A stretch of DNA of 64,000 nucleotides from a virus (Duplodnaviria > Caudoviricetes): IMG/VR virus record IMGVR_UViG_3300025139_000012, positions 7,591-71,590 of that record. One strand, 5' to 3'. Below the pieces are notes generated by a model that did no database searches, had not been told where the DNA came from, and saw only the letters and a program-made list of their open reading frames with translations. Shown piece by piece: positions 6,619-64,000 of this stretch; within the stretch, counting starts at the first letter, position 1; each line of letters starts with the position of its first letter. Made by a program: the position numbers and the translations under genes.

Positions 6619-8217
6619 TTATAATTTTTGTTTCCAAATCCAAACTGAATTACCGCAGTCCCAAATGCGATCATAGCCATTGGCCTGCATATTTTCCCAT
6701 TCAGTCAGTGATGGGTCAAATGTTTCAAGCAGTTTTGCCAATTTATGCTTTTGACAAACTTGCCTAGAAATTAAATCAGAATAATTTCGTGTGTATTTGT
6801 AATTTGGCGGTGAAGTGTGAGACATTGAAAATCCCAGCATACTGTATAAGTTACCAGTGTTAAATGTTAAATCGCAGTATGAAATAACCGAGGTAGGAGA
6901 GAATTCCTCTTTGAATTTAGCATATAGTTTACTGGCACCCCCAGTAATGTTTAGCCCGTGTTTAGAGCAATAGCGAAGCAATTCCCATTCCGCAGACTTA
7001 TTAAATCTAGACTTACCAAAAGTCATAACTCCAAGCAGTTCATGTTCAGAAGAGTGAATACCGTAGGCTACTTTTGCTGCTACATTACCTTGGATATGAT
7101 TCAAATTTAAAAAATTAGCCGCTACTGCCGACGTAATTCTTAACACTTGGCATTTTCTTGCCATTACTTTTTTATTTTCACCCAATGCTGACGTAATCCT
7201 TGATTTCACCAATTCTGGATTTTTATTCCATTGTGAGTGAAGAATGTGTATCAATCTATACCCAGCACTGTTTGCCAGTGTTGTTTTGTTTAAGTGGTAG
7301 TCACGATCTTTACCCTGCAATTCGGAATGCCAGTAGTCACCATTGATTTCAATCGCTACTTTTTTTTCTGGGATTACGATATCCAATTCCAGTGGATGAA
7401 TAATTCTCCTATCCCCAGTTATCACCTCAAAGCCTTTGCTCCTGATTAGATCAGCAATTTCAGTTTCAAGCTGTGAACTGTTGTGACCGTACGGAAAACA
7501 TGTAGGGCACCGCGGAATCTTCCCATTTGCCAGCCTTGCAGTAAATTTGGTTCCGCATGTTGAACACAACCATTCATATCGCCCAAAAACTCCATCATAA
7601 TTTTTAGTATCAAAATTTGGAATTAAATTATGCTGCAACAAATCTTGCAACTTTTGTGGTAACCATTTAACACGCTTTAGTTGATTCATGTTTTCAACTA
7701 AATTTTTGTTTTGATATGGATGATTTACCCCTGTCTTTTTTCTGTAAGTATCTCGCTGTTTTTCACGAATTGAGGCAACTTTGTTGACATTATCAACTCC
7801 GTAGGTAGCCAAACAAGTTTCCCTCCGTTTTTCAGTAGTTTCAGGTAGTTTACTGGTGTGAGTGACACCGTATTTTTCCATAGTTTCTTTCTGAATTTTA
7901 ACTCTTGCAGCAGCAGTGTTAAAGGCTTCACCTGCTCCATACTTTGCCATGTTAGTTGCGAATTTTTTGCTTTTGGTTGTTGGGGAGTTAGCACTGCATT
8001 TAGTGCTGCAAAAAAGCAGATATCCTTGAGCAAAATTTTTAAAGTGAGTCGGGGACTCACATACTAAGCATTTCTGAGGCCCAGGAAAATTATGAACAAT
8101 TTGATATAACTCTTCAGTGGGCAAGTTAACGTTGAACTTTTTAAGTCGAGCTGATGATAGTTTCCCACGAGAATCAAGCAAATTTTCAATAATCAACTGC
8201 GGTGTATAAATAATCAT
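6619..8217 (-). CDS. Hef-like/Vsr-type endonuclease with GNAT-like tail (copy 2)
   Basis: Same architecture as copy 1: AIEINGDYWHS, Zn ribbons, KYG repeats, ELLRYC..GGASKL..SYCD. Confidence 0.75.
   Translation of the reverse strand: MIIYTPQLIIENLLDSRGKLSSARLKKFNVNLPTEELYQIVHNFPGPQKCLVCESPTHFKNFAQGYLLFCSTKCSANSPTTKSKKFATNMAKYGAGEAFNTAAARVKIQKETMEKYGVTHTSKLPETTEKRRETCLATYGVDNVNKVASIREKQRDTYRKKTGVNHPYQNKNLVENMNQLKRVKWLPQKLQDLLQHNLIPNFDTKNYDGVFGRYEWLCSTCGTKFTARLANGKIPRCPTCFPYGHNSSQLETEIADLIRSKGFEVITGDRRIIHPLELDIVIPEKKVAIEINGDYWHSELQGKDRDYHLNKTTLANSAGYRLIHILHSQWNKNPELVKSRITSALGENKKVMARKCQVLRITSAVAANFLNLNHIQGNVAAKVAYGIHSSEHELLGVMTFGKSRFNKSAEWELLRYCSKHGLNITGGASKLYAKFKEEFSPTSVISYCDLTFNTGNLYSMLGFSMSHTSPPNYKYTRNYSDLISRQVCQKHKLAKLLETFDPSLTEWENMQANGYDRIWDCGNSVWIWKQKL
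6634..6754 (-). repeat. 121-bp inverted repeat, right arm
   Basis: Reverse complement of 5225-5345 with one mismatch. Confidence 0.95.
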
Positions 8218-14875: not shown

Positions 14876-15000
14876 TCATCCTTGTTCAGCTATGTATTTG
14901 GCTATTGTTTCAGTTGATGCATCTCCTGTAGAACAAACAAAGTAACCAGATGACCAAAATATATGTTTCTCCCATTTGATGGTCTTTCTTAATTTTGTAT
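14876..15000 (-). pseudogene. tnpA: C-terminal remnant of an IS200-type Y1 transposase
   Basis: FWSSGYFVCSTG..STETIAKYIAEQG (catalytic YxxxQ helix); HUH half missing. Confidence 0.85.
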
Positions 15001-15042
15001 AAAAATATTTATGACAAAGAAACAGATCAGATAAATAATAGC

Positions 15043-16233
15043 ATGAAACAACTACTCGCATACAAATACCGGATTTACCCAACGGAAGACCAACAAGTCC
15101 TTCTGAGTAAAACCTTTGGATGTAAACGAGTGATCTTTAACCATTATTTGGTAGAGCAGCAAGTTAGATACAAAAACAAAGAAAAGAACCTGAGCAATTT
15201 TGATATCAACAAAGACATCACCCAACTAAAAGACACGAAGGTGTGGTTAAGGGAAGTAGATTCAATTGCCCTACAAATGGCAGCAGAAGACCTGTCAGTT
15301 GCTTACGATAACTTCTTCAAATCAATAACTGGTAAGAGAAAAGGGCCTAAAATATCCTTGCCAAAATTCAAAAACAAGAATTCCCGTCAGTCATACAGAA
15401 CACGTGGTGTTCGCATAAATGAAGATGGATCATTACAGATTCCAAAATTGAAAGCAGTAAAAGCAGTAGTTCACAGAGAAATTCCAGTTGATTCGGTAAT
15501 CAAATCAACAACTATTTCAAAGAATCCTGATGGAAGATACTACGCATCAATTTTAGTTGAAACAGAAGTATCATTACAACCAATCTCTTTAAAAGAGATT
15601 GGGTGTGACTTAGGTCTTAAGGATTTGCTCATCACAAGTGATGGGGTAAAATTCAAGAGACCAAATGATTTGCCAAACATTGTAAAAACCAAACAATTGT
15701 TGAAGGTAAATCAAAAGCAGTTTGCAAGAACTGATAAAAGCAGCAAGAATCACGAGCTCCTGCGCCTGCAGGTAGCACGTCTTTACTCGAAATTGACACG
15801 GCAGAGAAACGAATACTATCATCTGGTATCAAGATATTTGGTTGATAATTATGACTCTATCTATGTCGAAAACCTTTCAAGTAAAAATATGCTCCAAAAC
15901 AGGAAGTTGAGTCGAGCAATTCATGAAGTGGCGTGGGCTACACTAACTAATATGATTTCTTACAAGTCAAACAGTGCAGGCAGAACATACCATCGAATCG
16001 ATAGGTGGTATCCAAGCAGTAAAACCTGTAGTTCCTGCGATCACAAACTTGAAAAGCTGGATCTTGGAACCAGAGAATGGACTTGTCCAAATTGCGGAAC
16101 CCATCATGATCGTGATATAAATGCTGCTAAGAATATCCTCCGTGTCGGTCAACTTGACTGCTACGGGGAAGCAATGAAGTCGCAAGCAACAGGCGATTTG
16201 GAAAACTCCATTGGCCCTACAGAAAATGACTAG
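15043..16233 (+). CDS. tnpB: RNA-guided endonuclease TnpB, family A
   Basis: AYKYRIYP, RuvC GCDLG / VENL / DRDINAA, zinc finger; GATAAATA at 15030-15037. Confidence 0.93.
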   Translation: MKQLLAYKYRIYPTEDQQVLLSKTFGCKRVIFNHYLVEQQVRYKNKEKNLSNFDINKDITQLKDTKVWLREVDSIALQMAAEDLSVAYDNFFKSITGKRKGPKISLPKFKNKNSRQSYRTRGVRINEDGSLQIPKLKAVKAVVHREIPVDSVIKSTTISKNPDGRYYASILVETEVSLQPISLKEIGCDLGLKDLLITSDGVKFKRPNDLPNIVKTKQLLKVNQKQFARTDKSSKNHELLRLQVARLYSKLTRQRNEYYHLVSRYLVDNYDSIYVENLSSKNMLQNRKLSRAIHEVAWATLTNMISYKSNSAGRTYHRIDRWYPSSKTCSSCDHKLEKLDLGTREWTCPNCGTHHDRDINAAKNILRVGQLDCYGEAMKSQATGDLENSIGPTEND

Positions 16234-16317
16234 TAAAATCGAGAGACCTGACATATGCTTGTCAGTTGGTCATAGGAGTGGGCAAGCTACACGATCTTTA
16301 GTCGTGTAGCAGTTGAC

Positions 16318-16600
16318 CCTTCTTCTAAAACTTGTTCTTGTTGTAGCCATAAACTAGAATCTTTAGATCTATCTATAAGAGAATGGACATGCCCTAGTTG
16401 TGGTACTGTTCACGATAGAGATCTAAATGCTTCAGTAAACATTTTGAATAAAGGTCTAGATGATCTTTATAGTTTAACATCGGACGAATTAGCCGATTAC
16501 AGACGTCGAGAGTCAGTAAATCCTAAAGTAGAAATACCAAAGGTAGATTCATTGAAACGTCTAGTCAGTTTTATAGATTTTTATAAAACGGCATAATTAT
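16318..16600 (+). mobile_element. tnpB: 3' remnant of TnpB family B (zinc finger, RuvC-III and omegaRNA end)
   Basis: Encodes PSSKTCSCC...DRDLNAS...FIDFYKTA*; near-identical to the reverse complement of 45210-45492. Confidence 0.9.
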
Positions 16601-17279
16601 TAGAATACGCGCTCGCATAAGGGGCTGCCGCAGTAGTTGTTTTGGCTATTTGCGCCGAGGTAGTAAGTTGTCGATATCCAACTGCTGTTGACGAGTTAGA
16701 AGCATTGTATACCGTTAAATTAGCCAGAGTGTTAATAGTTCCCGCTAAACTAGAGCTACGAGTGTTGCCGCCCAACGATGATGCAGAGCATACAAAGTTA
16801 ATCCTGCCGCCAGCGTTGAAAAAATATCTTGCGTGTTGAGCAGATGCAAAACTAACATTGGTGTCTACGAACTGTGACGGTGCAGATGAGTATGGTGCAT
16901 TAGTAGAGTTAAAAGTGTTAGCTGTTCCAGTGATAGTAGTGCCAAGGGTAGCGGCAGATGCCCTGTTAGTATATACAGAGTTAACGCTTGATTGCAGCGT
17001 GCTCAAGTATGTAACAATTGACCCAGCGGTTGGCGCTGCGATTCCAGTTCCTGAACCTGATTGGTGTGTTTTGACAGCATTGAGCTTGTTAATCAATGTT
17101 GCCCACTGTGTTGCTGTTACAATGATGCCAGGGGCTACGGCTGGGACGGCTACGACAGGCACTTGTCCGTAACCAGCATCCCCATAACCAACGCCAAGAA
17201 CAGTGTTTAACTAGTTTGCTCCGTTGATAAGATTATTGTAATCTGCAGCTTGAATCAGGCCGCCTGTTGCGTATGTCAT
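16601..17279 (-). pseudogene. Tail-fibre-like structural gene with in-frame TAG, 3'-truncated by IS
   Basis: ATG 17279 MTYATGGLIQAADYNN..., TAG at 17211-17213, frame continues (LNTVLGVGYGDAGYGQ...ARYFFNAGG) into the family B right end. Confidence 0.7.
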
Positions 17280-30737: not shown

Positions 30738-32288
30738 TCATAGGTTATTTGCCTTCGCCCACGCCATTGATGTTCCAGCTGGCCATCCGTATAATGCATC
30801 TATATCTGCTGCTGTTTTGCCTATACTCATTGCGTACTGCCAAAGTGTCAGTTCAGATGATCTGCCATTTCTTACTGCAGGATCATTTGCATACGCATTT
30901 ACTGCTACTTTAGTCCATGCAGGCGTCGCGGGAGTTGCGGCCGTTGTGGCGGGTATTGATGTAGTAACTGGAGTAGGAACTGGTGTAGGAACTGGTGTGG
31001 GTTTCGGAGTTATACTACTAGTCGCAGCAGGTGGTACATAATTAGATGAGTTTGAACTTTGTAAATCTGGTATGTTTGCTCTAGCCCACGCCATTGATGT
31101 TCCAGCTGGCCATCCGTATAATGCATCTATATCTGCTGCTGTTTTGCCTATACTCATTGCGTACTGCCAAAGTGTCAGTTCAGATGATCTGCCATTTCTT
31201 ACTGCAGGATCATTTGCATACGCATTTACTGCTACTTTAGTCCATGGAATATTCACTGTGGTTAGACTATTCCAATCAAACTCCGGTTCTGTGTTAGCTA
31301 TCCACGGTTTAATAAATGGGCTTATATTTCCCCCACCATCCCACAGAAGTTTAATGCGGGAATTTGATCTTCGAATTTCATTTATTGTCTGTATAAAAAT
31401 ACTATTTTTTACTATTGGAATCTGAGTGGCAGGGTCAGTACTGACACTTTTTATCCATGCATCCTTTACTGTTCCTTGACCTAAGGTATTGGGTTGTGCC
31501 GCTAACCAATTTATATATTGTTGCTGCTCTGGAACTGTAATAGCTGCAGCACTTCCATTTTGCACAATGTCTGGGGTCGCTAAGTGGGCTGCATCTTCGC
31601 CGCTACCCGGGCTTCTTGGTGTTGCAGGGGTAGATGCATCAGGTCCGCTTCCTGGTGTAAATCCGCTTCCTGGTGTAAATGCAGTATATCGATATATTGG
31701 TATTGATACGGGCCTGAAATACTTTTTATTTTCAAACAAGAAATTAACTTTAAGAGAAGTTGAAGTAGTTGACGTCGATAGCGGAGTGATATCCAATGGT
31801 CCAGAGTATGCGCCAGATGAGTCAAGATATATATGCTTTTCTCCTGGGGTGATCACTACTGGGGGTATTGTTGGATTACCTGCCGCTGTTGTTGCAACCC
31901 ACTCGGGTTCAGTTAACACTTTATTCAAATTAGTAAGGTCAGATAGTCTTGTGATGACATAATTTTTATACCCTACTACTCTATTACCGATTAATTTTGC
32001 AATAACATCAGCAGTTGAATACCCAGATGCTGTACTTAGATTATTTGTCGAATACTCAGTAATGTCTATATATTCTTGCATTGTAATGCCCGGCGCATCA
32101 TCCGCGGTTAGCAGCATTAAATCAGCAGCAATCTTTGAAACTACCTGAGAAGGTGAATAAGGTGGTGTTACATACGCGTTACTTACAAACTCCTTAATTG
32201 TTAGTCCAGTGTCAATTTTAACACGAAATGCATCAAAAGTGACCACTGTGTTTGTTATTTTACTTTTAAATGCTGCAATTAGTTTCAT
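30738..32288 (-). CDS. Hypothetical protein with a duplicated 54-aa domain and Pro/Thr linker
   Basis: 516-aa ORF; WTKVAVNAYANDP...GTSMAWA occurs twice. Confidence 0.75.
   Translation of the reverse strand: MKLIAAFKSKITNTVVTFDAFRVKIDTGLTIKEFVSNAYVTPPYSPSQVVSKIAADLMLLTADDAPGITMQEYIDITEYSTNNLSTASGYSTADVIAKLIGNRVVGYKNYVITRLSDLTNLNKVLTEPEWVATTAAGNPTIPPVVITPGEKHIYLDSSGAYSGPLDITPLSTSTTSTSLKVNFLFENKKYFRPVSIPIYRYTAFTPGSGFTPGSGPDASTPATPRSPGSGEDAAHLATPDIVQNGSAAAITVPEQQQYINWLAAQPNTLGQGTVKDAWIKSVSTDPATQIPIVKNSIFIQTINEIRRSNSRIKLLWDGGGNISPFIKPWIANTEPEFDWNSLTTVNIPWTKVAVNAYANDPAVRNGRSSELTLWQYAMSIGKTAADIDALYGWPAGTSMAWARANIPDLQSSNSSNYVPPAATSSITPKPTPVPTPVPTPVTTSIPATTAATPATPAWTKVAVNAYANDPAVRNGRSSELTLWQYAMSIGKTAADIDALYGWPAGTSMAWAKANNL
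30757..31246. repeat. Identical 163-bp direct repeat (30757-30919 and 31084-31246)
   Basis: Manual alignment, no mismatch seen. Confidence 0.92.
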
Positions 32289-32804
32289 AATTATGCCGTT
32301 TTATAAAAATCTATAAAACTGACTAGACGTTTCAATGAATCTACCTTCGGTATTTCTACTTTAGGATTTACTGACTCTCGACGTCTGTAATCGGCTAATT
32401 CGGCCGATGTTAAACTATAAAGATCATCTAGACCTTTATAGAGTATGTTTACTGAAGCATTTAGATCTCGATCATGTTTAGTACCACAGCTAGGACATGT
32501 CCAATCTCTAGTAGATAGGTCTTTAATGAACTTTTCGTCTTGTGGTAAACAAGGACCAATAAAATTATGATTGAAAGATGCAACAAATTGATTCCAGATA
32601 TATCTAACCGCACCAAAGTTACGGTCCAGAAAACTAGACTGTTCCTTAGTGGGATAGATTCGGTATTTGAATGATTTTAGAACTAATTGAGTCATAAATT
32701 ATATTGGATTATATAGTTTAGTTAATGTTTTAAGTTTACCATATATAAATTATATTGAAGTTATATGGTTATTTATGGTAATTTATGGTAATTAAAATTT
32801 AGTC
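32287..32804 (-). mobile_element. tnpB: Internally deleted TnpB family B element (mini-tnpB ORF 32291..32695)
   Basis: N-terminal ~60 aa fused in frame to the C-terminal ~70 aa of the 45214..46449 protein; shares its AT-rich leader and GGCATAATTAT end. Confidence 0.9.
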
Positions 32805-45209: not shown

Positions 45210-46524
45210 ATAATTATGCCGTTTTATAAAAATCTATAAAACTGACTAGACGTTTCAATGAATCTACCTTTGGTATTTCTACTTTAGGATTTACTGACTC
45301 TCGACATCTGTAATCGGCTAATTCGGCCGATGTTAAACTATAAAGATCATCTAGACCTTTATAGAGTATGTTTACTGAAGCATTTAGATCTCGATCATGT
45401 TTAGTATTGCAACTAGGACACGTCCATTCTCTTATAGAGAGATCTAAAGATTCTAGTTTATGACCACAACAAGAACAAGTTTTAGAAGAAGGAAACCAAG
45501 TATCTATTTGATGGAACGTTTTACCGTACCAGTTAGATTTATAGCTGACCATTCCGATTAAAGTAGACCAAGAAGCATCTTGAATTGACTTAGATAATTT
45601 TCTATTCTTAATCATATTCTTGACTTTAAGTGATTCCATAATTATGGTATCATAGTTATTTACTAACCAAGTTGATAGATTATCATAAATAAACTTTCTT
45701 TGGTTAGTTACTTTTAGATAAAGTCTAGCCACTTTAAGTTTCATCTGTTTGTATCTGGATGAATCTTTAACTTTCTTACTAAATGCTCTTTGAGTTATTT
45801 TTAGTTTCGTTTGGGTTTTACGAAACCATCTAGGATTACTGATTTTCATGCCTGTTGAACAGATAAGTAAATCTTTTAAACCCAGATCAATACCAATACT
45901 CCTACCGGTATTTTGTTTCAGCTCTATAGGTTCTTCAACTAGAACCGAAACAAAATATTGGTTGGCTTTATTCTTTGATACTGTTACCGATTTCAACAAT
46001 CCAGAAAATTTTCTATCGATAACTAGTTTAATAGGCGACATCTTTGGTAATTTGATTCTAGAAGTCTCAAAATTTATACAGGAATTAAATTTTAGACATT
46101 GACCTGGAATTTTAAATGAATCATTAGAAACTCCTTTTTTCTTGAACTTTGGTCTACCTAATTTGACTGCTCTCTTTTTAGAAAAGAATTGCTTCTTGAA
46201 TTCAACCCAGTCCATTCTTTTCTGTTGTAGACCGTAACTAATTACTTCAGTCAAGAATTCTTTTCCGGGTAGGTCTTTAATGAACTTTTCGTCTTGAGGC
46301 AAACAAGGACCAATAAAATTATGATTGAAAGATGCAACGAATTGGTTCCAGATATATCTAACCGCTCCAAAGTTACGGTCTAGAAAACTAGTCTGTTCCT
46401 TAGTGGGATAGATTCGGTATTTGAATGCTTTTAGAACTAATTGAGTCATAAATTATATTATATAGTTTATTTAATGTTTTAAGTTTACTATATAAATTAT
46501 ATTGAAGTTATATAGTTATTTATC
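45210..46524 (-). mobile_element. TnpB family B element, intact copy (no transposase gene)
   Basis: AT-rich leader and GGCATAATTAT end shared with three other copies; inserted between gp25 and gp6; left boundary approximate. Confidence 0.8.
45214..46449 (-). CDS. tnpB: RNA-guided endonuclease TnpB, family B
   Basis: AFKYRIYP, RuvC GIDLG / MESL / DRDLNAS intact, zinc finger. Confidence 0.93.
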   Translation of the reverse strand: MTQLVLKAFKYRIYPTKEQTSFLDRNFGAVRYIWNQFVASFNHNFIGPCLPQDEKFIKDLPGKEFLTEVISYGLQQKRMDWVEFKKQFFSKKRAVKLGRPKFKKKGVSNDSFKIPGQCLKFNSCINFETSRIKLPKMSPIKLVIDRKFSGLLKSVTVSKNKANQYFVSVLVEEPIELKQNTGRSIGIDLGLKDLLICSTGMKISNPRWFRKTQTKLKITQRAFSKKVKDSSRYKQMKLKVARLYLKVTNQRKFIYDNLSTWLVNNYDTIIMESLKVKNMIKNRKLSKSIQDASWSTLIGMVSYKSNWYGKTFHQIDTWFPSSKTCSCCGHKLESLDLSIREWTCPSCNTKHDRDLNASVNILYKGLDDLYSLTSAELADYRCRESVNPKVEIPKVDSLKRLVSFIDFYKTA

Positions 46525-46544
46525 GTTGCGATAATATTAGTATA

Positions 46545-55203: not shown

Positions 55204-56220
55204 ATGAGTAATTTATTTAAAAAAGCGATTGTCTTTACTGATTTGCATCTAGGTTTGAAATCAAATAGTGAAGCCCACAATAATGACTGTCTTGAATTTG
55301 TAAATTGGTTTATCGAGACCGCAAAAAAAGAAAACTGTGAGACTTGTTTCTTCCTTGGCGATTATCATAACAACCGTGCAAGTATGAATATCCGAACTAT
55401 GACCTATGCTGTAAAGATATTAGAACTTCTCGGAGAAAATTTCTCTCAAGTGTTTTTTATACCAGGAAACCATGATCAATTTTTCAGAGATCGTCGCGAT
55501 ATTCAATCAGCCGAGTGGGCTAGGCATATCCCAAACATTACCATTGTCAATGAGTTTTTTAAAGACAGTGATGTAAGCATTGTTCCGTGGCTAGTTAAAG
55601 ACGAACATAAGAAAATTGAAAAGATCAATGCCAAATATTGTTTTGGACACTTTGAGTTGCCGCATTTCTATATGAATGCGCAAATTCAGATGCCGGATCA
55701 TGGTGAAATACAGCAGGATCATTTCAAAGGTGTCGAGCAAGTGTTTAGCGGGCACTTTCATAAACGGCAAAATGGAAAGAATATAAACTACATTGGCAAC
55801 TGTTTCCCGCATAACTACAGTGATGTCGGAGACGATGAGCGTGGGTGTATGGTGTTAGAGTGGGGTGGGGAGCCAGAATATTTTTCGTGGCCAGATCAGC
55901 CCAGATATCGTATCTACCAACTTAGCCACCTCTTGAACAAGGCTGAAACTATTTTGAAGCCAAAAATGCATGTCCGTGTTAACTTGGACATTGACATTAG
56001 TTATGAAGAGGCTACTTTTGTGAAGGAAACTTTTGTTGACACTTATAAACTGCGAGAGCTTACGATGATTCCAGTGAAAAAAGATGTGTCCTCAGATGTT
56101 GTAACGCCAGGTAGTATTCAGTTTTTATCAGTGGATCAGATTGTTAACGCTGAAATTTCGCAGATTAAAAGCGATCATTACGATCCAAAAGTGTTGATTG
56201 ATATTTACAGGAATCTCTAA
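55204..56220 (+). CDS. Recombination nuclease (gp47/Mre11/SbcD-like)
   Basis: DLH, GD, GNHD, GHFH metallophosphoesterase motifs. Confidence 0.92.
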   Translation: MSNLFKKAIVFTDLHLGLKSNSEAHNNDCLEFVNWFIETAKKENCETCFFLGDYHNNRASMNIRTMTYAVKILELLGENFSQVFFIPGNHDQFFRDRRDIQSAEWARHIPNITIVNEFFKDSDVSIVPWLVKDEHKKIEKINAKYCFGHFELPHFYMNAQIQMPDHGEIQQDHFKGVEQVFSGHFHKRQNGKNINYIGNCFPHNYSDVGDDERGCMVLEWGGEPEYFSWPDQPRYRIYQLSHLLNKAETILKPKMHVRVNLDIDISYEEATFVKETFVDTYKLRELTMIPVKKDVSSDVVTPGSIQFLSVDQIVNAEISQIKSDHYDPKVLIDIYRNL

Positions 56221-56222
56221 AA

Positions 56223-58022
56223 TTGTTTACGATAAAAAATCTCACTACAAAAAATTTCATGTCAGTTGGGAATAATACCCAGGCTATAAACTTTGATAGA
56301 AAAGATTTAACTTTGGTGTTGGGTGAAAACTTAGACTTAGGCGGTGATGATGCTGGGTCACGTAATGGGGCTGGTAAGTCTGTTATCGTTAACGCTTTGA
56401 GTTATGCCTTGTTTGGGCAGGCAATAAACGACATTCGTCGTGACAACTTGATCAACCGGACTAATGCTAAGGGCATGCTTGCTACGATTGACTTTGTTAA
56501 GGATGGGGTCACTTACAGGATTGAACGCGGGCGTAAACCCAATGTCTTGAAGTTTTACAAGGGAGATGTCGCGTTTGCAGCGCAGGATGATGATGCTCAA
56601 GGTGATTCTCGTGAGACCCAGGCTGAGATTGATCGTATCTTAGGTATGTCGCATGATATGTTCAAGAATGTGGTCGCGTTGAACACTTACACTGAACCGT
56701 TCTTGAGCCTCAGAGCTAACGATCAACGCACAATCATTGAGCAGTTGCTTGGCATAACAGTGCTGAGTGAGAAGTCGGATGCTCTTAAAGAGCAGATTCG
56801 CGCTACCAAGGACACGATTTCAGCAGAAGAACAGCGTATCAAAGCGTGTGTTGAGGCAAACAAGAAAATAGAAGAGCAGGTCGCCGCTCTCAAGAAGCGT
56901 AGCGCACAGTGGGAAGCGAAACATGAGGTCGATATCGCTGATTTGTCAAGTTCTTTGGAAGAATTGCTCAAGGTAGACATTGATGCTGAGATTGATACAC
57001 ACGCTGCTAACGATGAGATAGCGTTGGCAGTGAAAAAACTTGACGATCATAAGAAAGCGTTGACTCGCACTGCCACAGAGCTTACCCGCGAAGAGCGAAC
57101 ACGAGACACTACTACAGCAGAAATCACAGCACTCAAGGATCACAAGTGCCACGCTTGCGGGCAGGATTTGCACGATGGCAAGCAAGAGGAGATCTTGAAG
57201 CGTAAGATCGCGGTGTTGGAAGAGGCTGAGGCTCAGATCGTGGAACTTTTGGAAGCAAAAGTCAAGATAAACGAGCAGATTGCGGCAATTGGGAGCGTTG
57301 GGACTGCAAAGAGCACGTTTTACAAAAAAATCGTTGACGCTCATAATCATAAGAGCTCAGTTCAGCACCTCACACAGCAGCTCGAGGGCAAACTTGGTGA
57401 GGTCAATCCATACAGTGAGCAGATCCAGGAGATGGAGGAGGCCGCACTCATCGTCGTGGACTATACGACCATTGACGCTGCTTCAAAGCTCAAGGATCAT
57501 CAAGAGTTCCTGCTCAAGCTCCTCACTAACAAGGACAGTTTCATCCGCAAACGGATTATCGATCAGAATCTTACCTACCTCAACGCACGGCTCTCTTACT
57601 ACCTTGAAAAAATAGGGCTACCACACACGGTAGTGTTCCAGAGTGATCTTACAGTCAGCATTGAAGAGTTTGGCCGTGAGCTTGATTTTTACAACCTTAG
57701 CCGCGGTGAGATGACACGGGTCATCTTATCGTTGAGCCTGTCGTTCCGCGACGTATGGGAATCAGCACACGAGGCAGTCAACCTTCTGTTCATTGATGAG
57801 ATGATTGACAACGGGCTGGACTCAAGTGGCGTTGAAAGCGTAATGGGCGTTCTCAAGCGGATGGCCCGAGATTCACAGAAGAGTATTTGGCTGATCTCAC
57901 ACAAGGATGAGCTTATCAGTCGTGTCGGGAACATTTTGAAGGTCCAGAAAGAGGGTGGGTTTACACAGTATATTACTGACGACACAGAAGATGCTAATGA
58001 AGAAGCAGTAGTAGTTGAGTGA
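56223..58022 (+). CDS. Recombination ATPase (gp46/Rad50/SbcC-like)
   Basis: NGAGKS Walker A, CHAC zinc hook, LSRGE signature, LFIDE Walker B, ISH. Confidence 0.92.
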   Translation: MFTIKNLTTKNFMSVGNNTQAINFDRKDLTLVLGENLDLGGDDAGSRNGAGKSVIVNALSYALFGQAINDIRRDNLINRTNAKGMLATIDFVKDGVTYRIERGRKPNVLKFYKGDVAFAAQDDDAQGDSRETQAEIDRILGMSHDMFKNVVALNTYTEPFLSLRANDQRTIIEQLLGITVLSEKSDALKEQIRATKDTISAEEQRIKACVEANKKIEEQVAALKKRSAQWEAKHEVDIADLSSSLEELLKVDIDAEIDTHAANDEIALAVKKLDDHKKALTRTATELTREERTRDTTTAEITALKDHKCHACGQDLHDGKQEEILKRKIAVLEEAEAQIVELLEAKVKINEQIAAIGSVGTAKSTFYKKIVDAHNHKSSVQHLTQQLEGKLGEVNPYSEQIQEMEEAALIVVDYTTIDAASKLKDHQEFLLKLLTNKDSFIRKRIIDQNLTYLNARLSYYLEKIGLPHTVVFQSDLTVSIEEFGRELDFYNLSRGEMTRVILSLSLSFRDVWESAHEAVNLLFIDEMIDNGLDSSGVESVMGVLKRMARDSQKSIWLISHKDELISRVGNILKVQKEGGFTQYITDDTEDANEEAVVVE

Positions 58023-58079
58023 AAAAATATTTCACTCGATTAAATCGAGGATAAATCAGTTTAACAAAGGGTATTTATT

Positions 58080-58265
58080 ATGACAACACACGAACAAATC
58101 GCAACTGCTTACGCAGCGTATCTTGAAGAATCAGCTAAGTTTGAAGAAAAGGGCGTGAAAGCGGCTGCCGCCAGAGCTAGGGCTGCTCTTGGTGACTTGG
58201 GCAAGCTCACAAAAGTGCGACGCGGTGAGATTCAGGACAAGAAAAATCTGATGTCTGCAAAGTAA
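58080..58265 (+). CDS. Small basic Hc1/histone-like protein
   Basis: KFEEKGVKAAAARAR.AL..L.KL.K.RR.EIQ pattern. Confidence 0.65.
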   Translation: MTTHEQIATAYAAYLEESAKFEEKGVKAAAARARAALGDLGKLTKVRRGEIQDKKNLMSAK

Positions 58266-58283
58266 AAGACTAAATAGATACTG

Positions 58284-58817
58284 ATGAGCACAGTAACTCC
58301 TAAAGTCAACGGCAAAAGTAAAGGTTCCTCGTATGAGCGCAAGATATCTAACTTGCTATCATCTCGCTTCGAAAAGGTAACTGGAATTTCATCCGCTTTC
58401 CGTAGGAATACAGATTCTGGCTCATTTTTTGGTGGTTCAAATCAACGCCGAGTCGTGACACATGATTTAAACCACGCTAACTTTGGAGATTTGATTTGCC
58501 CAGATGGATTCAAATACTCCGTTGAGTGTAAAAACTATAAAGCAGGCCCCACGTTCGCTGCCATTGTGAAGGGTAAAGTCGCACAATGGGACACGTGGAT
58601 TAAGCAAGCAACTCAGGACGCTAGAAATAGCAAAAAAGAAATGCTTCTTATAATCAAATACAACGGGACTGACGATCTTGTATTTGTTGAAAAACGTCAA
58701 CCAACTTTAAACCCACTATTTTATTACAACCAAGTTTTCGGCTACAGGTTAAAAGATTTTTTAGCCCAATCTGATGACAAATTTTTTCCTTATGGATTAG
58801 AAAAATATTACTACTAA
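58284..58817 (+). CDS. Holliday junction resolvase-like PD-(D/E)XK nuclease
   Basis: SKGSSYER, SG, GDL, VECKNY. Confidence 0.75.
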   Translation: MSTVTPKVNGKSKGSSYERKISNLLSSRFEKVTGISSAFRRNTDSGSFFGGSNQRRVVTHDLNHANFGDLICPDGFKYSVECKNYKAGPTFAAIVKGKVAQWDTWIKQATQDARNSKKEMLLIIKYNGTDDLVFVEKRQPTLNPLFYYNQVFGYRLKDFLAQSDDKFFPYGLEKYYY

Positions 58818-59088
58818 ATTTAAATTACCATAAATAGTCATATAACTTTAATATAATTTATATGGTGATCTTAAAATAACTAGAATGACTTTGTGGAACT
58901 GGAGGTAAAATTAAATTTCACAAAATGAGTTTTGAGTAAAGGTCTAAATGATCTTTACTCACTTACATCGGAAGAATTATCCGATTACAGACGTAGAGAG
59001 TCAGTAAATCCTAAGGTAGAAATACCAAAGGTAGATTCGTTGAAACGTCTAGTCAGTTTTATAGATTTTTATAAAACGACATAATTAT
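58813..59088 (+). mobile_element. Non-coding TnpB family B remnant (leader plus omegaRNA end)
   Basis: 58813-58880 matches the family B leader; 58938-59088 matches its 3' end, finishing ACATAATTAT. Confidence 0.85.
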
Positions 59089-59098
59089 TGTATATATT

Positions 59099-59834
59099 TC
59101 GCTATCAGAGACCATCTCTTATTATTTTTGAAAAAAGCCCAGCCACAAAGGCACATGCACACAGCGGGCTAGTACACCTGTTTAAGTATTAGTAGAGAAA
59201 TGGATTTGCACAGAGTCTGACCTGTATCTGTGTGGCAAGGCCCTCATTGGTGGTGTGGCCCACTGCTGTAAGCGAACTCTACGCGAGCTATTACACTGCG
59301 ATGAGCAGTCCTACCTTTGTGTAAGAAGCAAAGGAACCATAAAAAATATCATCCCCAAGGTGGCGTTGAGTGCCTGAAAAACTGGTCACACGTTGGAGCG
59401 ATGTTTTAGTAATAGTTTAACAGGTTTTACCAAAGCGGCCGGTGGTTCATAATAGACGGTATATCCCACTGGGTTAGCGGCAGATCATTTTCCTAATATA
59501 TTTGATCATGCTTGGTGCGTAAAGTAACGGTTTACTCCTTTACTCGTACCACTAACGAACGCGCTTCGTGCCAGGAAAAATAATATTTCGGGTGAGTAAT
59601 ATATTTTTCTGGTTGAGAGTGACATAGTCAATCCCCTCCATTAAAACGAAGATATAGGTGCAAGGGCGACAGGTAAATTGCAAAGCGTAGAGTCAAGAAG
59701 GCTCAAATCATGATTTGATTTGATTTTCTTTGACTCACATTTGCCGTGCTGGCTCTTGGTAATTGGCAATACTGGTCGCTACTTTCAGTAGCTCGCAAAA
59801 ACCGCTCAGGTGTCGGTTATGTAAATGATAGCGA
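59099..59834 (+). ncRNA. Putative large structured non-coding RNA of unknown class
   Basis: No ORF >=60 aa; closing helix 59099-59107/59826-59834; many internal helices with G.U pairs that favour the + strand. Confidence 0.6.
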
Positions 59835-59892
59835 TAACGTGTTTATATAACATTATTCAATTTAAATCATCCTAAATCCAAAAACTAAAAAG

Positions 59893-59946
59893 GACTGAGC
59901 TATCGCGACGCGATAGCGAAAGTCAGGTGATGCGTTAAGCATCACC
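59893..59946 (+). other. Two adjacent strong hairpins
   Basis: GACT-GA-GCTATCGC[GAC]GCGATAGC-GAA-AGTC, then GGTGATGC[GTTAA]GCATCACC. Confidence 0.7.
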
Positions 59947-59972
59947 ATTAAAAATATCCCACCGTTAGACAA

Positions 59973-60212
59973 ATGGCTAAATACGAGATGAGTAATAACC
60001 TATTTTCTTTCGAAGATGATGTAAAAGAAATCAACCGCAAAGCCTACCGAGTAAATCTCAATGTCCCCGGAAGGGATATAAAAAAGGTCAAAGCGTTGGG
60101 TGCTAGGTGGGATAGCGAGAATCGTATCTGGTACGTATTAAAAAAATTCAACGATAACATGTTTCCATTTTCAGCATGGATAACAACTGTTGGAAACCCC
60201 CACAGTAAATAA
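59973..60212 (+). CDS. DUF5710-like small protein
   Basis: LNVP..D...VKALGARWD...WYV. Confidence 0.7.
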   Translation: MAKYEMSNNLFSFEDDVKEINRKAYRVNLNVPGRDIKKVKALGARWDSENRIWYVLKKFNDNMFPFSAWITTVGNPHSK

Positions 60213-60224
60213 TACTGCAGGATT

Positions 60225-60443
60225 TTAGAAAAACGGAAGACCTGACCGTTTTGTAGTTTCTAAATTTTCGTTGATGAGTTTATTGAGATTTTCTCTCTCA
60301 GAGACTGAGAGAAGCATTGCATCATCGTAGCTAAGGCCCCCGCGCATAAACCAGCTTAACTTCATTGCCTCGCTCTTTAAGGCTTTTGCCTCTTTCTCCA
60401 TTTTGCTGATATAACTGGCAATTCTATCAGCAGGCATGGACAA
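60225..60443 (-). CDS. Baseplate hub assembly protein (gp51-like)
   Basis: LSWFMRGGLSY..A..LS..ERE; follows the gp26-like gene. Confidence 0.6.
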   Translation of the reverse strand: MSMPADRIASYISKMEKEAKALKSEAMKLSWFMRGGLSYDDAMLLSVSERENLNKLINENLETTKRSGLPFF

Positions 60444-60448
60444 AAGCC

Positions 60449-61285
60449 TTAGGCGAAAAAATGGGAATGATCGAAGGTAAGATTAACTGAAAAATCTTTC
60501 TCACACTCACTGCATACAACCTTCACAGGTTTAATCTTCGCAGTTTCAGCAAAATCTTCAAGTATTTTTTTCACTTGGTTAGTAACATTCTTGCCACTGT
60601 TCTTGTAAAACTCGTTAATAAACACTGGGTTATCTACTTTAACATTGTCTTGGGTTAAGATATATTCTGTAGAGTCAACATACATTTGGTTCGAAAGATC
60701 AACAATCGTGTTCAAATGTTGCGAAAACAATGAAGTTCGCTCAGAATCTGCCAACTCTGTATTTTGAATAGTGTTAATTAACTTTTGCTCTTCAAAAGCA
60801 ACTAAATTTGCTTTATTCATTTGAAAATATTGACGCGGCTTAAACTTGAAAGTTAACCCGTCAATAGTAAAGGATTTATTGAAATCAGGAACAGTAATAT
60901 TTGCCAACACATTATGCAAGTCAATTCCGTAAGTATTTTCACCTTTACAATGTGGGCATGTAGTTTCAATATCCATGGTATTGGAGTAACTTGCGATTCT
61001 GATAGCAATAAGCACAGAATCAACGTCAACACTGGGCATTTTCCATGCATCTTTGATTTCTGGGATGCAAGATTGAATAACTGAAGTTACTCCACTACCA
61101 TTTAACAGCGCATCGGGGGTGCGTATAATAACTTCATCTCTAGTTGTCATTGAATACACGGGCAACTCTCCAGTTACTGGTAAGTCTAACGCACCTTCTG
61201 GCCAAAAAGCACCGTTGCTTGGCAACTTAAAGTGAATAACGGGTTGTCTAAAGTGTTTCGCAAGAGGATTTTGATTTTCAGTCAT
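60449..61285 (-). CDS. Baseplate hub subunit (T4 gp26-like)
   Basis: LPSNG.FW, MTTRDE, IAIRIASY, two CxxC. Confidence 0.75.
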   Translation of the reverse strand: MTENQNPLAKHFRQPVIHFKLPSNGAFWPEGALDLPVTGELPVYSMTTRDEVIIRTPDALLNGSGVTSVIQSCIPEIKDAWKMPSVDVDSVLIAIRIASYSNTMDIETTCPHCKGENTYGIDLHNVLANITVPDFNKSFTIDGLTFKFKPRQYFQMNKANLVAFEEQKLINTIQNTELADSERTSLFSQHLNTIVDLSNQMYVDSTEYILTQDNVKVDNPVFINEFYKNSGKNVTNQVKKILEDFAETAKIKPVKVVCSECEKDFSVNLTFDHSHFFA

Positions 61286-61294
61286 TTTTTCGCC

Positions 61295-61321
61295 TATAAA
61301 TATATGGTATAGTCATATTTA
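61295..61321. promoter_or_regulatory. Crossed divergent late promoters
   Basis: TATAAATA (+, 61295-61302) and TAAATA (-, 61316-61321) in a 50-bp gap. Confidence 0.6.
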
Positions 61322-61335
61322 GTGAGTAAAAATAT

Positions 61336-64000
61336 ATGGATGAAGAAAAAATTGCAGCGTTAACCGCAGCCATCGAAGCACTGACACTTAAAATGGAAGC
61401 TATGGGTGTTGCTAGTGATACGGCGAAAAATATCACTAGTGCTGGCACCAGTTTTGTTAATGCCACACGCAAAGCAGCTAAGGATATTGATAACCTGCGA
61501 AAAGCAGGGAAATCTGAAGCCGAGATAGCGAAAAAGTTATCTGAAGAGCTAGCTGCACTTACTGCTGATTATAAAGCCGGCGCAATCACCTTAGAGGAAT
61601 TTAACAAAAAGGCTGCTGTATTTAAGACAAGTTTGGGCAATCTTTCCGAAGCTCTTGACGAAACAACAAAAAAAGAAATTCAGCGTGACCTAGACGAAGC
61701 TGAAGCCGTTAATACTAGACTTGCTGCAAATAAAGTAATGGTGTCGTCTATTAATCAGACGATGAAATCACTAGTTGTAGCAACGTTTACAGCGTCAACA
61801 TCAATTTTAAAAGCTGTTCAATCTGGCGGCGACGGTATTGCCGTAGCTAACTCAATTTTAAACGCAGAGATAACTGCTGGTCAACAGTCATTTAACGCAT
61901 TATCGAGTGGAGTTAAAACAACTGCAGACGCATTTTCTAAAATGCCTGGTAAAGTTGGATTACTTGCGACCGGTATTTCGGCTCTTACCTCAGTATTCCA
62001 AAATGTAGCTGATGCTACTGTAGCATATGAAAAAGCAAGATTGGACATAATGAATGTTCAAGCCACTAAGGTAATGTCTAGCTTTATGGCTATTTCATCA
62101 ACTGGTGCAAACTTTGCCGCCGGCATGGATGAACTAAAAGGAATTGTTGCTGAGACTGGGGTGTCAATGGACACTCTATCCAAAATACAAAAAACTAACG
62201 CTGAAACTATATCTGGTGCTGGTATAGGGATGCAAGCCGGGTTTAGAAAACTTGCTAAAACTTTTGCTGGTGCTGAGGGAAATCAGCTAAAATCAAGTTT
62301 GCTAAATTTAGGATTTAGTATTGAAGAGCAAGGGGAAGTAGTAGCTAAGACAATGGAACAAATGCGTCGCTCTGGTCGCGATATGTCCACTGTATCTCAA
62401 TCTGACATAGCTAGTAGTACTCGTGACTATGCGGAAAATTTAAGGACAATATCGGCTATTACTGGGCAGGATGCTAAAGCAAAAATGCAGCAAGCAAGGG
62501 ATGCTGCCACTAATGCTGCGGTTGAAAATAAAATACGCAAGATGACCCGTGACGGCGATGTAAAAGCTCGCGAAAAATTTCAGCGAGATTATGCTATTGC
62601 TGCGTCAAAGGGATTAGAAAAAGCGTTTCTTCAACAGTTTGCAACTAGCGATATGAATGGGCGCGGCGGCATTGTAACAGATATAAGCTCTGCCATTGTA
62701 ATGAATCAAACTGGATCTGAGCAGTCAGTTAAAGATCTAGTTGCAAATACACATAACAAAGATTACGCAGGGTCAAACACTGAAGCAGCTAGATTAAGTG
62801 GTAAACTTGGGGGAGAACTTAACAGTGATACTGCGGTGACAAATATGTCCAGTCTAGGCCTTGCTCAAATGCTGGGAACAAATACTGGGGCTGCTGGGGC
62901 TGCAAGTGAGTTGTATAGCAATGTGCAAAAAGAATCTCTTAAAGGAGCAACATCTTCTGAGGCGGCAGTTGCAGCGCAGCAAGAAGTAGTTAAGTCGATG
63001 CAGACTCTTTCTAAGACTACTCAAGATTTAAATGATATACAGATTAAAGGTGAGCAAGCTAGAGCAAAACTAGAGGGCGATTTATTTGCCAATCTTGAAG
63101 AGTACACTGCTAAAATGAAATCGGCGCTAGAAAATGCAGGAATGCTAGCAGATTTAAAACCAGTAGATAAAACATCTATGGTACTGTCTAGTGTAGCAAC
63201 GGGTATAGGTAGCCTAGTTACTGGGCTATTAGAGTTCAAAGCTGCATCACTTTTACTCGGAACAAGAACCGCATCAGTGACCGGAGTGTTTGGCACCTTA
63301 GGCGGAACGCTAACTTCAGCTTCCGTGACAATAGCAGGAGCAGCTAGCTCAGCTGGAGCAGCACTAACAGCAGCAGGTTCCACAATAGTTGGTGCTGCAT
63401 CAAGTGCTGCTACTACCCTTAGCGGCGCAATGTCTACTGCAGGAACTGCAATCGCCGGAGCGTCAGCAGGAACAGTAGCACTAGCAGCAGTATCAGCCAC
63501 CGCAGCCGCCGCTGGTTTGCAAGCTGCAAATAGCGTATGGGACGGCGGAGACGGGGCAAACTTTTTAAATGACGCTCTTAATTCAGCGTTACAAAAAGCA
63601 TTTGATGTAGATAGCCTTGGCATATTCGCATACAATTTGTCTCACACAGACCCACTAAGTAACGCCGAGCAAAAACAAGATACCAAAACACCAACAAATA
63701 AAGAATCTGATAAATCAACAGCTAATATCGTCGCTGCAATAGACAAAAATAAACCTATTGACCCAGCCCAATCGACAGCTAATATTGTTGCTGCAATAGA
63801 CAAAAATAAACCTATTGACCCAGCCCAATCGACAGCTAATATCGTCGCTGCAATAGACAAAAATAAACCTATTGATCCAGCTCAATCGACAGCCAATATT
63901 GTTGCTGCGATAGACAAAAATAAACCTATTGACCCAGCTCAATCGACAGCCAATATTGTTGCTGCGATAGACAAAAATAAACCTATTGATCCAGCTCAAT
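61336..64000 (+). CDS. Tape-measure-like protein (runs off the window; absent from the ORF track, presumably because it has no stop)
   Basis: MDEEKIAALTAAIEALTLKM...; spot-checked open frame, Ala/Gly/Ser-rich helical sequence, divergent from the gp26-like gene. Confidence 0.75.
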   Translation, partial: MDEEKIAALTAAIEALTLKMEAMGVASDTAKNITSAGTSFVNATRKAAKDIDNLRKAGKSEAEIAKKLSEELAALTADYKAGAITLEEFNKKAAVFKTSLGNLSEALDETTKKEIQRDLDEAEAVNTRLAANKVMVSSINQTMKSLVVATFTASTSILKAVQSGGDGIAVANSILNAEITAGQQSFNALSSGVKTTADAFSKMPGKVGLLATGISALTSVFQNVADATVAYEKARLDIMNVQATKVMSSFMAISSTGANFAAGMDELKGIVAETGVSMDTLSKIQKTNAETISGAGIGMQAGFRKLAKTFAGAEGNQLKSSLLNLGFSIEEQGEVVAKTMEQMRRSGRDMSTVSQSDIASSTRDYAENLRTISAITGQDAKAKMQQARDAATNAAVENKIRKMTRDGDVKAREKFQRDYAIAASKGLEKAFLQQFATSDMNGRGGIVTDISSAIVMNQTGSEQSVKDLVANTHNKDYAGSNTEAARLSGKLGGELNSDTAVTNMSSLGLAQMLGTNTGAAGAASELYSNVQKESLKGATSSEAAVAAQQEVVKSMQTLSKTTQDLNDIQIKGEQARAKLEGDLFANLEEYTAKMKSALENAGMLADLKPVDKTSMVLSSVATGIGSLVTGLLEFKAASLLLGTRTASVTGVFGTLGGTLTSASVTIAGAASSAGAALTAAGSTIVGAASSAATTLSGAMSTAGTAIAGASAGTVALAAVSATAAAAGLQAANSVWDGGDGANFLNDALNSALQKAFDVDSLGIFAYNLSHTDPLSNAEQKQDTKTPTNKESDKSTANIVAAIDKNKPIDPAQSTANIVAAIDKNKPIDPAQSTANIVAAIDKNKPIDPAQSTANIVAAIDKNKPIDPAQSTANIVAAIDKNKPIDPAQ
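63715..63999 (+). repeat. 57-bp in-frame tandem repeat (STANIVAAIDKNKPIDPAQ, at least 5 copies)
   Basis: Five consecutive units differing only at synonymous positions. Confidence 0.93.

Follow-up and report, generated by a model that had tools for sequence, protein, structure and literature searches.

An open-reading-frame-free gap in a giant T4-like phage holds a TnpB transposon remnant and, most likely, a separate large structured RNA

The DNA analysed here, hereafter the window, is a stretch of 64,000 nucleotides (nt) that spans positions 7,591 to 71,590 of the IMG/VR virus record IMGVR_UViG_3300025139_000012, a 71.6-kb record with an estimated completeness of 21%. The window is part of the genome of a giant T4-like phage whose closest cultured relatives are those of the PA5oct group (49.6% identity in the Rad50-like protein). 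The subject of this analysis is the region 58818-59972, 1155 nt that contain no open reading frame (ORF) of at least 60 amino acids (aa) and constitute the biggest such gap in the window. An earlier note, made from the sequence alone, described about 880 nt without an ORF and proposed a large, highly structured RNA of a possibly new class at 59099-59834; the distance between the stop of a 50-codon frame (59084) and the next gene (59973) is indeed 888 nt. The gap is composite: its left part is the remnant of a TnpB transposon, and the remainder is most likely a separate structured RNA of about 870 nt, the two being unrelated to each other. The principal features of the locus are as follows.

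55204-56220: Mre11-like gene
56223-58022: Rad50-like gene
58080-58265: gene for an Hc1-like histone
58284-58817, + strand: small nuclease gene (177 aa) of the PDDEXK_15/RusA-like resolvase type (PF24608, E 4.9e-24; phrog_244, E 6.7e-20)
58822-59088, + strand: TnpB transposon remnant
59089-59963, + strand: candidate large structured non-coding RNA with putative ends, supported by the absence of ORFs, folding and repeats, strain substitutions and synteny
59973-60212, + strand: DUF5710 gene of 79 codons (PF18974, E 2.2e-11), directly 3' of the candidate RNA
60225-61285, - strand: genes for gp26/gp51-like baseplate-hub chaperones (PF12322, T4_baseplate, E 5.1e-15), convergent with the candidate RNA

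The small nuclease gene stands at the end of the Mre11/Rad50-like operon and immediately precedes the slot occupied by the candidate RNA. The G+C content reaches 0.475-0.495 at 59100-59399 compared with 0.255-0.295 at 58700-59099 and 0.37 at 59700-59999, in agreement with the earlier description of a region richer in G+C than the flanking intergenic DNA. The same holds for the reported lack of hallmarks of known RNA genes: an ARAGORN scan finds no tRNA or tmRNA gene, and group I and II introns, RNase P, tmRNA and tRNA yield no Rfam match. Furthermore, the gap is not flanked by the exons of a split gene, given that a transposon end lies to the left and an intact small gene to the right.

The segment 58822-59088 is an internally deleted TnpB mini-transposon of about 270 bp, one of four copies of this element in the window. 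The copies and the parts of the remnant are the following.

14995-16601, + strand: TnpB transposon copy
32287-32785, - strand: TnpB transposon copy
45210-46526, - strand: TnpB transposon copy with an intact 411-aa tnpB gene (45214-46449, - strand)
58822-59088, + strand: TnpB transposon copy, the remnant in the gap
58822-58885, + strand: left-end-like part of the remnant with a putative left boundary, matching the left parts of two other copies
58930-59088, + strand: C-terminal 50 codons of tnpB (58932-59084), at the same time the guide-RNA scaffold, followed by the right transposon end at 59088
59089-59108, + strand: would-be guide of the remnant's guide RNA, with an assumed length of about 20 nt, placed according to the TnpB guide-RNA layout

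The left end and the scaffold-bearing tnpB tail are both retained in the remnant, which, together with the match to the other copies, identifies it as an internally deleted TnpB copy. Its left part is 84-85% identical to 32785-32719 (-) and 46526-46477 (-), so that left-end matches to 58821-58882 are found at two of the three other copies in the window, and all three of these are about 90% identical to 58930-59089 (16442-16601 on the + strand, 32438-32287 and 45361-45210 on the - strand). This right-end module of about 160 nt retains about 90% identity across the copies in the window, and the codon changes between copies within the tail are synonymous. Among the four copies, one has a 412-aa frame with a separate tail after it, and two, of about 500 and about 270 bp, are internally deleted. 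Relatives of the 50-codon tail (58932-59084) are present in 13 IMG/VR loci where, whenever the upstream frame is present, the tail closes a TnpB frame at its C-terminus. These frames comprise 408-437 aa in L015, L016 and L018-L020 and 362 aa in L011; in L012-L014, the tail ends a 134-aa, internally deleted TnpB frame. A Pfam scan of six frames (L011, L012, L015, L016, L018 and L019) detects HTH_OrfB_IS605, OrfB_IS605 and Cas12f1-like_TNB in the four frames of 408-437 aa that were included, OrfB_IS605 and Cas12f1-like_TNB in L011, and HTH_OrfB_IS605 with a partial TNB domain in L012.

All copies share the same last bases and diverge immediately thereafter, which defines a sharp common right end. 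The remnant also explains the assembly breaks at 59088: several contigs run into differing sequence exactly at 59088/59089, and when public runs are compared with 57000-62000, the DNA depth over 58837-59170 is 10-18 times that of the flanks. The DNA depth in the aquifer runs indicates that the right-end module occurs in many further contexts. The wastewater run X23 matched the transposon part alone; this run and X24, both wastewater runs with a small share, as well as coverage gaps in RNA contigs, were excluded as evidence. In one contig from the RNA library X19, 58808 is followed by 21 other letters and then by 59082, so that 273 nt are missing. This contig may represent a strain without the mini-transposon; the joint lies off the transposon ends, and one of its sides consists of 29 letters.

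In TnpB systems, the guide-RNA scaffold is described as lying inside the right end of the transposon, with the guide just outside (PMC10055086, PMC10690162, PMC11061315), and the Rfam family RAGATH-18 is reported to correspond to the scaffold in the guide RNAs of IS607-type TnpB (Ren et al. 2024, PMC11061315). The remnant fails the threshold of the RAGATH-18 covariance model for the IS607-type guide RNA (reRNA; gathering score, 44.9 bits); sub-threshold matches of 20.1 bits at 58990-59051 and 16.1 bits at 45247-45308 (-) occupy the same relative position in two of the copies and are a lead only. The resemblance to a TnpB guide RNA (omega RNA or reRNA) concerns 58930-59108 alone, where scaffold and 3' end of tnpB overlap and the scaffold stops at the right end, and where the nucleotide sequence of the module is highly conserved across copies; the difference is that tnpB itself is deleted in the 58822-59088 copy. 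The transposon has spread within the phage, and the RNA of the remnant, which retains the left end, the tnpB tail with the scaffold and the right end, would use 59089-~59108 as a guide for TnpB supplied by the intact copy. TnpB so guided would target phage genomes that lack the insertion. The 5' arm (59099-59107) of the terminal helix that, according to the earlier note, closes the structured element lies 11-19 nt past the right end of the remnant and falls inside this would-be guide. In the 13 TnpB loci, neither blastn nor nhmmer detects anything like 59085-59972 after the transposon end, so the structured stretch lies outside the transposon; accordingly, the 736-nt element proposed in the earlier note differs from a TnpB guide RNA in its position and in its absence downstream of the other copies.

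The region to the right of the transposon end has a moderate potential for folding. The four long-range helices listed in the earlier note exist, with 9 of 9, 14 of 16, 9 of 9 and 8 of 8 Watson-Crick pairs, and all eight local stems it proposed recur in the minimum-free-energy (MFE) fold. There are 13 perfect 8-mer inverted repeats compared with 4.5 +/- 2.7 in 300 dinucleotide shuffles (2 of the 300 reach 13), and 4 perfect 9-mer inverted repeats compared with 1.16 (19 of the 300 reach 4). The + strand of 59099-59834 has an MFE of -224.3 kcal/mol (z = -4.25, 20 shuffles) whereas the minus strand has z = -2.35. Set against other 736-nt segments of the same phage and corrected for composition, the z values are -2.14 (+) and -1.88 (-), and 3 (+) and 4 (-) of the 166 other segments lie lower. 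For the domain 59175-59660, comparison with 100 shuffles gives z = -2.29 (+) and -1.12 (-), with nine control segments ranging from +1.31 to -2.81. In each comparison, the + strand folds better than the - strand. The expectation that the structure would exceed shuffled controls is thus borne out for the shuffles, and only to a moderate degree for the background of the phage itself. As a separate observation, the 8-mer at 59099 recurs, together with its complement, five times (59099, 59827, 59899-59917, 60111 and 61524; 1.19 expected in the whole window), a number reached in 1 of 100 shuffles. These copies could pair in alternative ways, such that the 5' end would be joined either to 59827-34 or to 59912-19.

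The aquifer runs contain a second strain, and the differences between the two strains are better evidence for a structured RNA than the folding energies. The comparison employs the best-supported 41 of 463 differences over a 5-kb stretch, of which 21 are substitutions in 59089-59834, and sets them against the MFE fold predicted from the sequence of the window alone. The parts of this fold are listed below.

59136-59170, + strand: 5' hairpin with a compensatory change (C59138U and G59168A on one variant contig, C-G to U-A)
59175-59206, + strand: 5' strands of three long-range helices of the MFE fold that close a core of about 486 nt (59175-59660)
59219-59478, + strand: part of the core that is nearly invariant between strains, with 2 listed differences in 260 nt
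59479-59613, + strand: variable peripheral hairpins; a variant contig skips 59479-59600
59630-59660, + strand: 3' strands of the long-range helices of the MFE fold; the depth of the X19 contigs drops about here
59661-59834, + strand: 3' domains of the MFE fold
59881-59963, + strand: 3' module (stem and loop, second hairpin, A-rich tail) resembling that of related phages, scored at 13.3 bits by the model R1 described below

The 21 substitutions comprise two compensatory pairs, four one-sided changes that keep a pair, three that break a pair and ten at unpaired positions. Random placement of the substitutions within the segments that were covered yields at least two compensatory pairs with P = 0.0086 and at most three broken pairs with P = 0.00085; the substitution pattern spares the predicted pairs. 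Three of the four one-sided changes create G.U pairs which would be C.A mismatches on the minus strand. The long-range helices 59175-81/59654-60, 59186-93/59640-47 and 59202-06/59630-34 have predicted pair probabilities of 0.91-0.94, and the second of these harbors the other compensatory pair, U59187C with A59646G, which turns U-A into C-G across 460 nt, and C59647U yields a G.U pair. Because U59187C is compensated by A59646G in this helix, the helix 59176-191/59410-425 of the earlier note is disfavored: in that arrangement, U59187C would break a pair with A59414, which lies in the invariant core. In the 3' domains, which include the nested helices 59661-67/59752-58 and 59672-78/59739-45, the hairpin 59690-59736, the hairpin domain 59759-59820 and the 3' arm of the terminal helix (59826-34), C59667U and G59701A keep pairs whereas A59663C and U59678G break them unless an unseen partner changes as well.

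The distribution of the differences along the region is uneven. Compared with the near-invariant part of the core, the adjacent 59138-59218 (81 nt) carries 11 substitutions and 1 indel, and the downstream genes at 59964-61096 show 168 differences and 7 gaps in 1133 nt (~15%). Two segments, 59479-59600 and 59808-59887, are replaced outright between strains; the divergent variant nevertheless retains the hairpin 59570-59613 with a shifted G.U, as judged by eye and with a loose end at 59601. A fixed core combined with swappable peripheral hairpins is the pattern of large RNAs. The variant that replaces 59808-59887 by 89 other letters loses the 3' arm of the terminal helix, so that conservation of this helix is not supported. 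Its nine pairs are real, and the left border of the element is set by the transposon end at 59088 rather than by the helix.

The RNA and DNA libraries were compared by contig depth. In the RNA library X19, the contigs covering 59089-~59637 have a depth of 65-73 as opposed to 11.9 downstream in the same strain; the contig of depth 65.6 ends near 59637, and the one of depth 11.9 begins at 59607. The DNA run X1 is flat, with 105-135 compared with about 140. The X19 depth is a weak sign of transcription.

The position of the gap in the gene order of related phages provides further information. An alignment of gp51-like proteins yields 54 IMG/VR loci at 29-100% identity, and 53 loci (52 of these and L006) were examined for the slot. 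In most of them, about 650-700 nt separate a small nuclease gene from the gp26/gp51-like genes, and the nucleotide sequence of this spacer is 66-94% identical between the relatives. The Rfam family RF01718 (Polynucleobacter-1) scores 94-119 bits in 8 of 12 scanned loci, where it follows the nuclease gene immediately and in the same orientation. The conserved non-coding part in the relatives is about 440-460 nt, and RF01718, with 141 positions, accounts for its first third only. Over the whole of the ~440 nt, 43 of 99 predicted pairs show compensatory changes (alignment A5 of 14 sequences: L093:5052-5495 on the - strand, L006:6055-6513 on the - strand and 12 further loci). These RNAs also have a conserved tail at the 3' end that is able to base-pair with a conserved stretch in the interior. 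The covariation that the earlier note proposed to seek in syntenic regions is therefore present in the slot RNA of the relatives; for 59089-59972 itself, the searches described below found no homologs outside the species.

The slot RNA of the relatives is modular. The same middle and 3' parts carry 5' domains of at least three types that are not homologous to one another: type 2 is found in L085, L086, L007, L103 and L114, and type 3 in L076, L079 and L082. Both of these types are about 95-130 nt long and unrelated in sequence to RF01718, and neither has an Rfam match in the scanned loci L076, L086, L103 and L114. The nuclease gene in front of the slot is swapped as well, with a SegE-like GIY-YIG nuclease in 7 and PDDEXK_15 in 3 of the 10 relatives tested. 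Our data agree with a view of nuclease and RNA as neighbors that are independent of each other. All types share a 3' module in which a covarying stem encloses a conserved loop and is joined by another hairpin with covariation and by a tail rich in A. A hammerhead-like reading of the loop of this module was considered and rejected since the core bases do not fit, as judged by eye, and no Rfam ribozyme matches. In the catalog of Weinberg et al. (2010; PMC2864571), Polynucleobacter-1 is scored as a likely RNA and a likely cis-regulator, from Burkholderiales and from fresh water or an estuary. A full-text literature search for the name Polynucleobacter-1 returns this paper only.

The window has the same arrangement, with PDDEXK_15, the mini-transposon, the RNA, DUF5710 and the convergent minus-strand gp26/gp51-like genes in this order, whereas the relatives' spacers examined contain no DUF5710 gene and the next genes after the slot RNA lie on the opposite strand. 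The candidate RNA thus resembles the ~440-nt slot RNA in its slot and strand, and both are multi-hairpin, ORF-free and without an assigned function; it differs in that it lacks the RF01718 domain, is about twice as long, and has a transposon before it and DUF5710 after it. Two models were built from the relatives, one of the 3' module (R1, 22 relatives) and one of the RF01718 domain (R2, 15 phage relatives), both with rough E-values due to short calibration. The weak R1 match at 59881-59963 is the top match in the 1631-nt spacer 58818-60448 (E 0.035, rough), with a small loop hairpin about 11 nt longer in the window. The idea that the RF01718 domain is split by an insertion of about 470 nt in its second helix was rejected because R2 finds nothing in 59089-59200 alone; a P1-like hairpin and the bases after it are similar by eye only.

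Two further observations concern the neighborhood of the slot. On the minus strand, the gp51-like frame stops just past a slippery run of six T and a C (60455-60461), and a -1 slip there leads into a 72-codon frame (60225-60443), a frameshift of the gp26/gp51-type chaperones. In PA5oct (L130, 75667-77179), about 1.5 kb between the genes for a RusA-like resolvase and the baseplate hub contain four annotated ORFs of 38-50 codons. This stretch yields no RF01718, no convincing R1 match and no meaningful Rfam match at E <=1, and the four non-coding RNAs (ncRNAs) of PA5oct in Table 1 of the published description lie outside it (PMC7318152).

On balance, we favor the view that 59089-59963 is a functional structured RNA read from the + strand, because of the excess of inverted repeats, the fold compared with shuffles, the spared pairs, the near-invariant core and, as a weak indication, the X19 depth. 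A number of observations weigh against it. Folding is unexceptional against the background of the phage (z about -2, with one coding control at -2.81). The strain evidence consists of 21 substitutions taken from contigs rather than reads; U59187C and A59646G are on different variant contigs, so that their linkage is assumed, and three substitutions disrupt pairs of the predicted fold. Recent recombination could account for the tract seen as the invariant core. In the second RNA library, X20, the region is little enriched (4-6 compared with about 3), and RNA levels are poorly reflected in contig depths. Outside the phage species itself, the searches revealed no homolog of 59089-59972. A blastn search of 58800-60000 against 50,697 INPHARED phage records finds nothing related. 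Exact 18-mers retrieve a self-like locus (L024) and one chance match (L023) for 59436-59453 and no match for 59265-59282 in IMG/VR, 38 chance loci for 59422-59439 in JGI metagenomes, none alignable at E 1e-4, and, among GTDB genomes, 6 loci that are chance matches in coding DNA of unrelated metagenome-assembled genomes. BLAST of five whole records of relatives and of 44 spacer sequences finds no homolog, R1 run over four records finds nothing at E <=1, and the near-identical IMG/VR contigs stop at 59087 (L002) and 59347 (L008) and add no variation. The two closest loci by nuclease protein (L003 and L004, 54-55% identity) have no such spacer. As to the relationship with the slot RNA, R1 run over all 64 kb ranks 59881-59963 second (E 1.4), after an unrelated site at 13.7 bits; the RF01718 Rfam model (37 bits) is unmatched in the window and gives nothing at E <=10 over 58700-60100; the best R2 match in 59089-59972 has 2.0 bits (E 0.73); and nhmmer profiles of the relatives, for all of them and for each of the three types, and blastn find no match in the window.

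Within the reading as a functional RNA, it is plausible that the window encodes an enlarged, sequence-divergent variant of the modular slot RNA, considering the shared slot, the weak match to the 3' module and the variation that respects the + strand fold; our confidence in this homology is lower than that in the RNA as such. A tentative and rather doubtful version is that the slot holds an essential, fold-dependent RNA and that, in this groundwater lineage, the ~440-nt type was replaced by, or rebuilt into, a new class of about 870 nt, comparable in size to GOLLD and ROOL, whose new core domain would be held almost constant among strains. The proposal of a large + strand ncRNA remains the best reading. 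The Rfam scan suggested in the earlier note detects no family of release 15 at the gathering score over the whole window and nothing meaningful at E <=10 over 58700-60100. The slot of the relatives, however, holds a known orphan RNA (RF01718 and about 300 covarying nt), which makes the novelty of the class uncertain.

The strongest rival is non-functional filler, that is, decayed or mosaic intergenic DNA next to the remnant that is transcribed at most by read-through from the guide-RNA promoter of the remnant and in which the helices are due to chance or are leftovers. The locus does look like a landing site for mobile DNA, with the mini-transposon, the extra DUF5710 gene and the swapped segments 59479-59600 and 59808-59887, and both the lack of homologs outside the species and a fold only about two standard deviations better than the phage background fit this explanation. 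The X19 depth declines away from the remnant (205, then 73-103, 38 and 12) in a manner resembling read-through. Nevertheless, filler would not be expected to accumulate substitutions that avoid predicted pairs, with two pairs compensated, or to conserve a core much more strongly than the neighboring genes; the excess of inverted repeats and the presence of a proven structured RNA in the same slot of the relatives also speak against it, and we consider it unlikely.

A replication origin, either an RNA-primed start via a persistent hybrid or DNA inverted repeats that serve as the origin, appears improbable. The locus lies between recombination and baseplate-hub genes, with A-T-rich flanks around a G+C-richer center; T4 ori(uvsY) lies beside genes 25/26/51, and both ColE1 RNA II and the T4 origin transcripts form persistent hybrids. 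The three one-sided changes that create G.U pairs, which form in the + strand RNA only, make a DNA-level origin less likely and leave an RNA pre-primer unaffected. The cumulative GC skew shows no turn at the locus, the DNA run X1 has no depth peak (in contig depths only), and no promoter or unwinding signature was seen, the only search being a scan for sigma-70-type promoters, which finds 9 sites compared with 5.2 +/- 2.5 expected.

The weakest alternative, a long cis-acting leader in which the RNA would belong to the DUF5710 gene (59973-60212) as its 5' untranslated region and control its translation or stability, can draw on the end of the RNA, as delimited here, some 10 nt short of the start codon of this same-strand gene, on potential pairing (by eye) of the start-codon region with bases just upstream, and on the cis-regulator score of Polynucleobacter-1 in Weinberg et al. 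(2010; PMC2864571), and yet it is very improbable, considering that about 870 nt are out of proportion for a 79-codon gene and that the slot RNA of the relatives is followed by opposite-strand genes without DUF5710, so that a leader role cannot be the general function of the family.

Returning to the functional RNA, several large RNAs offer themselves for comparison. GOLLD, ROOL, OLE and HEARO are similar in size class (600-900 nt) and in their many helices; some are carried by phages, and their functions are unassigned or only partly known. Their Rfam 15 models do not match the window, and these families are defined by wide phylogenetic covariation whereas the candidate RNA has been seen in one phage species. 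Species 1 and 2 of T4 (rnaC/rnaD) and ColE1 RNA II are phage or plasmid structured RNAs without a protein product, and ColE1 RNA II is a folded transcript of about 550 nt that acts as a replication pre-primer. These RNAs, compared here by description only, differ from the candidate in size and genomic context.

The candidate RNA would be read on the + strand, either as the tail of the recombination operon (Mre11/Rad50-like, Hc1 and nuclease genes) or from a promoter in the remnant. It would assume a multi-domain fold: the long-range helices close a core of about 486 nt around the near-invariant center, variable peripheral hairpins and another 3' domain are added to this core, and the two hairpins of the terminal module probably serve to define or shield the 3' end. 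The 5' domain of the modular slot RNA is the part that differs between lineages. We guess that the candidate RNA is stable and works by virtue of its fold, as a protein scaffold or decoy or as a replication pre-primer, and not a ribozyme; nothing supports the latter role, which the earlier note had raised.

Few large structured RNAs of unassigned function are known, and every such discovery has led to new biology. If the candidate is what it appears to be, a single phage locus would carry RNAs with interchangeable domains, with three 5' types in the relatives and a fourth, larger form here, and this domain exchange would narrow the possible roles of the conserved 3' module. If it instead represents a new class, one RNA architecture would have displaced another at a fixed locus. 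The transposon copies show that a guide-RNA transposon multiplies within a giant phage of the lytic type, and the guide of the remnant would point to the very start of the RNA locus, which makes homing of the transposon between co-infecting strains testable. The variation at the slot would also supply natural variants for probing the function of the orphan RNA Polynucleobacter-1, which was cataloged in 2010 and has been unexplained since.

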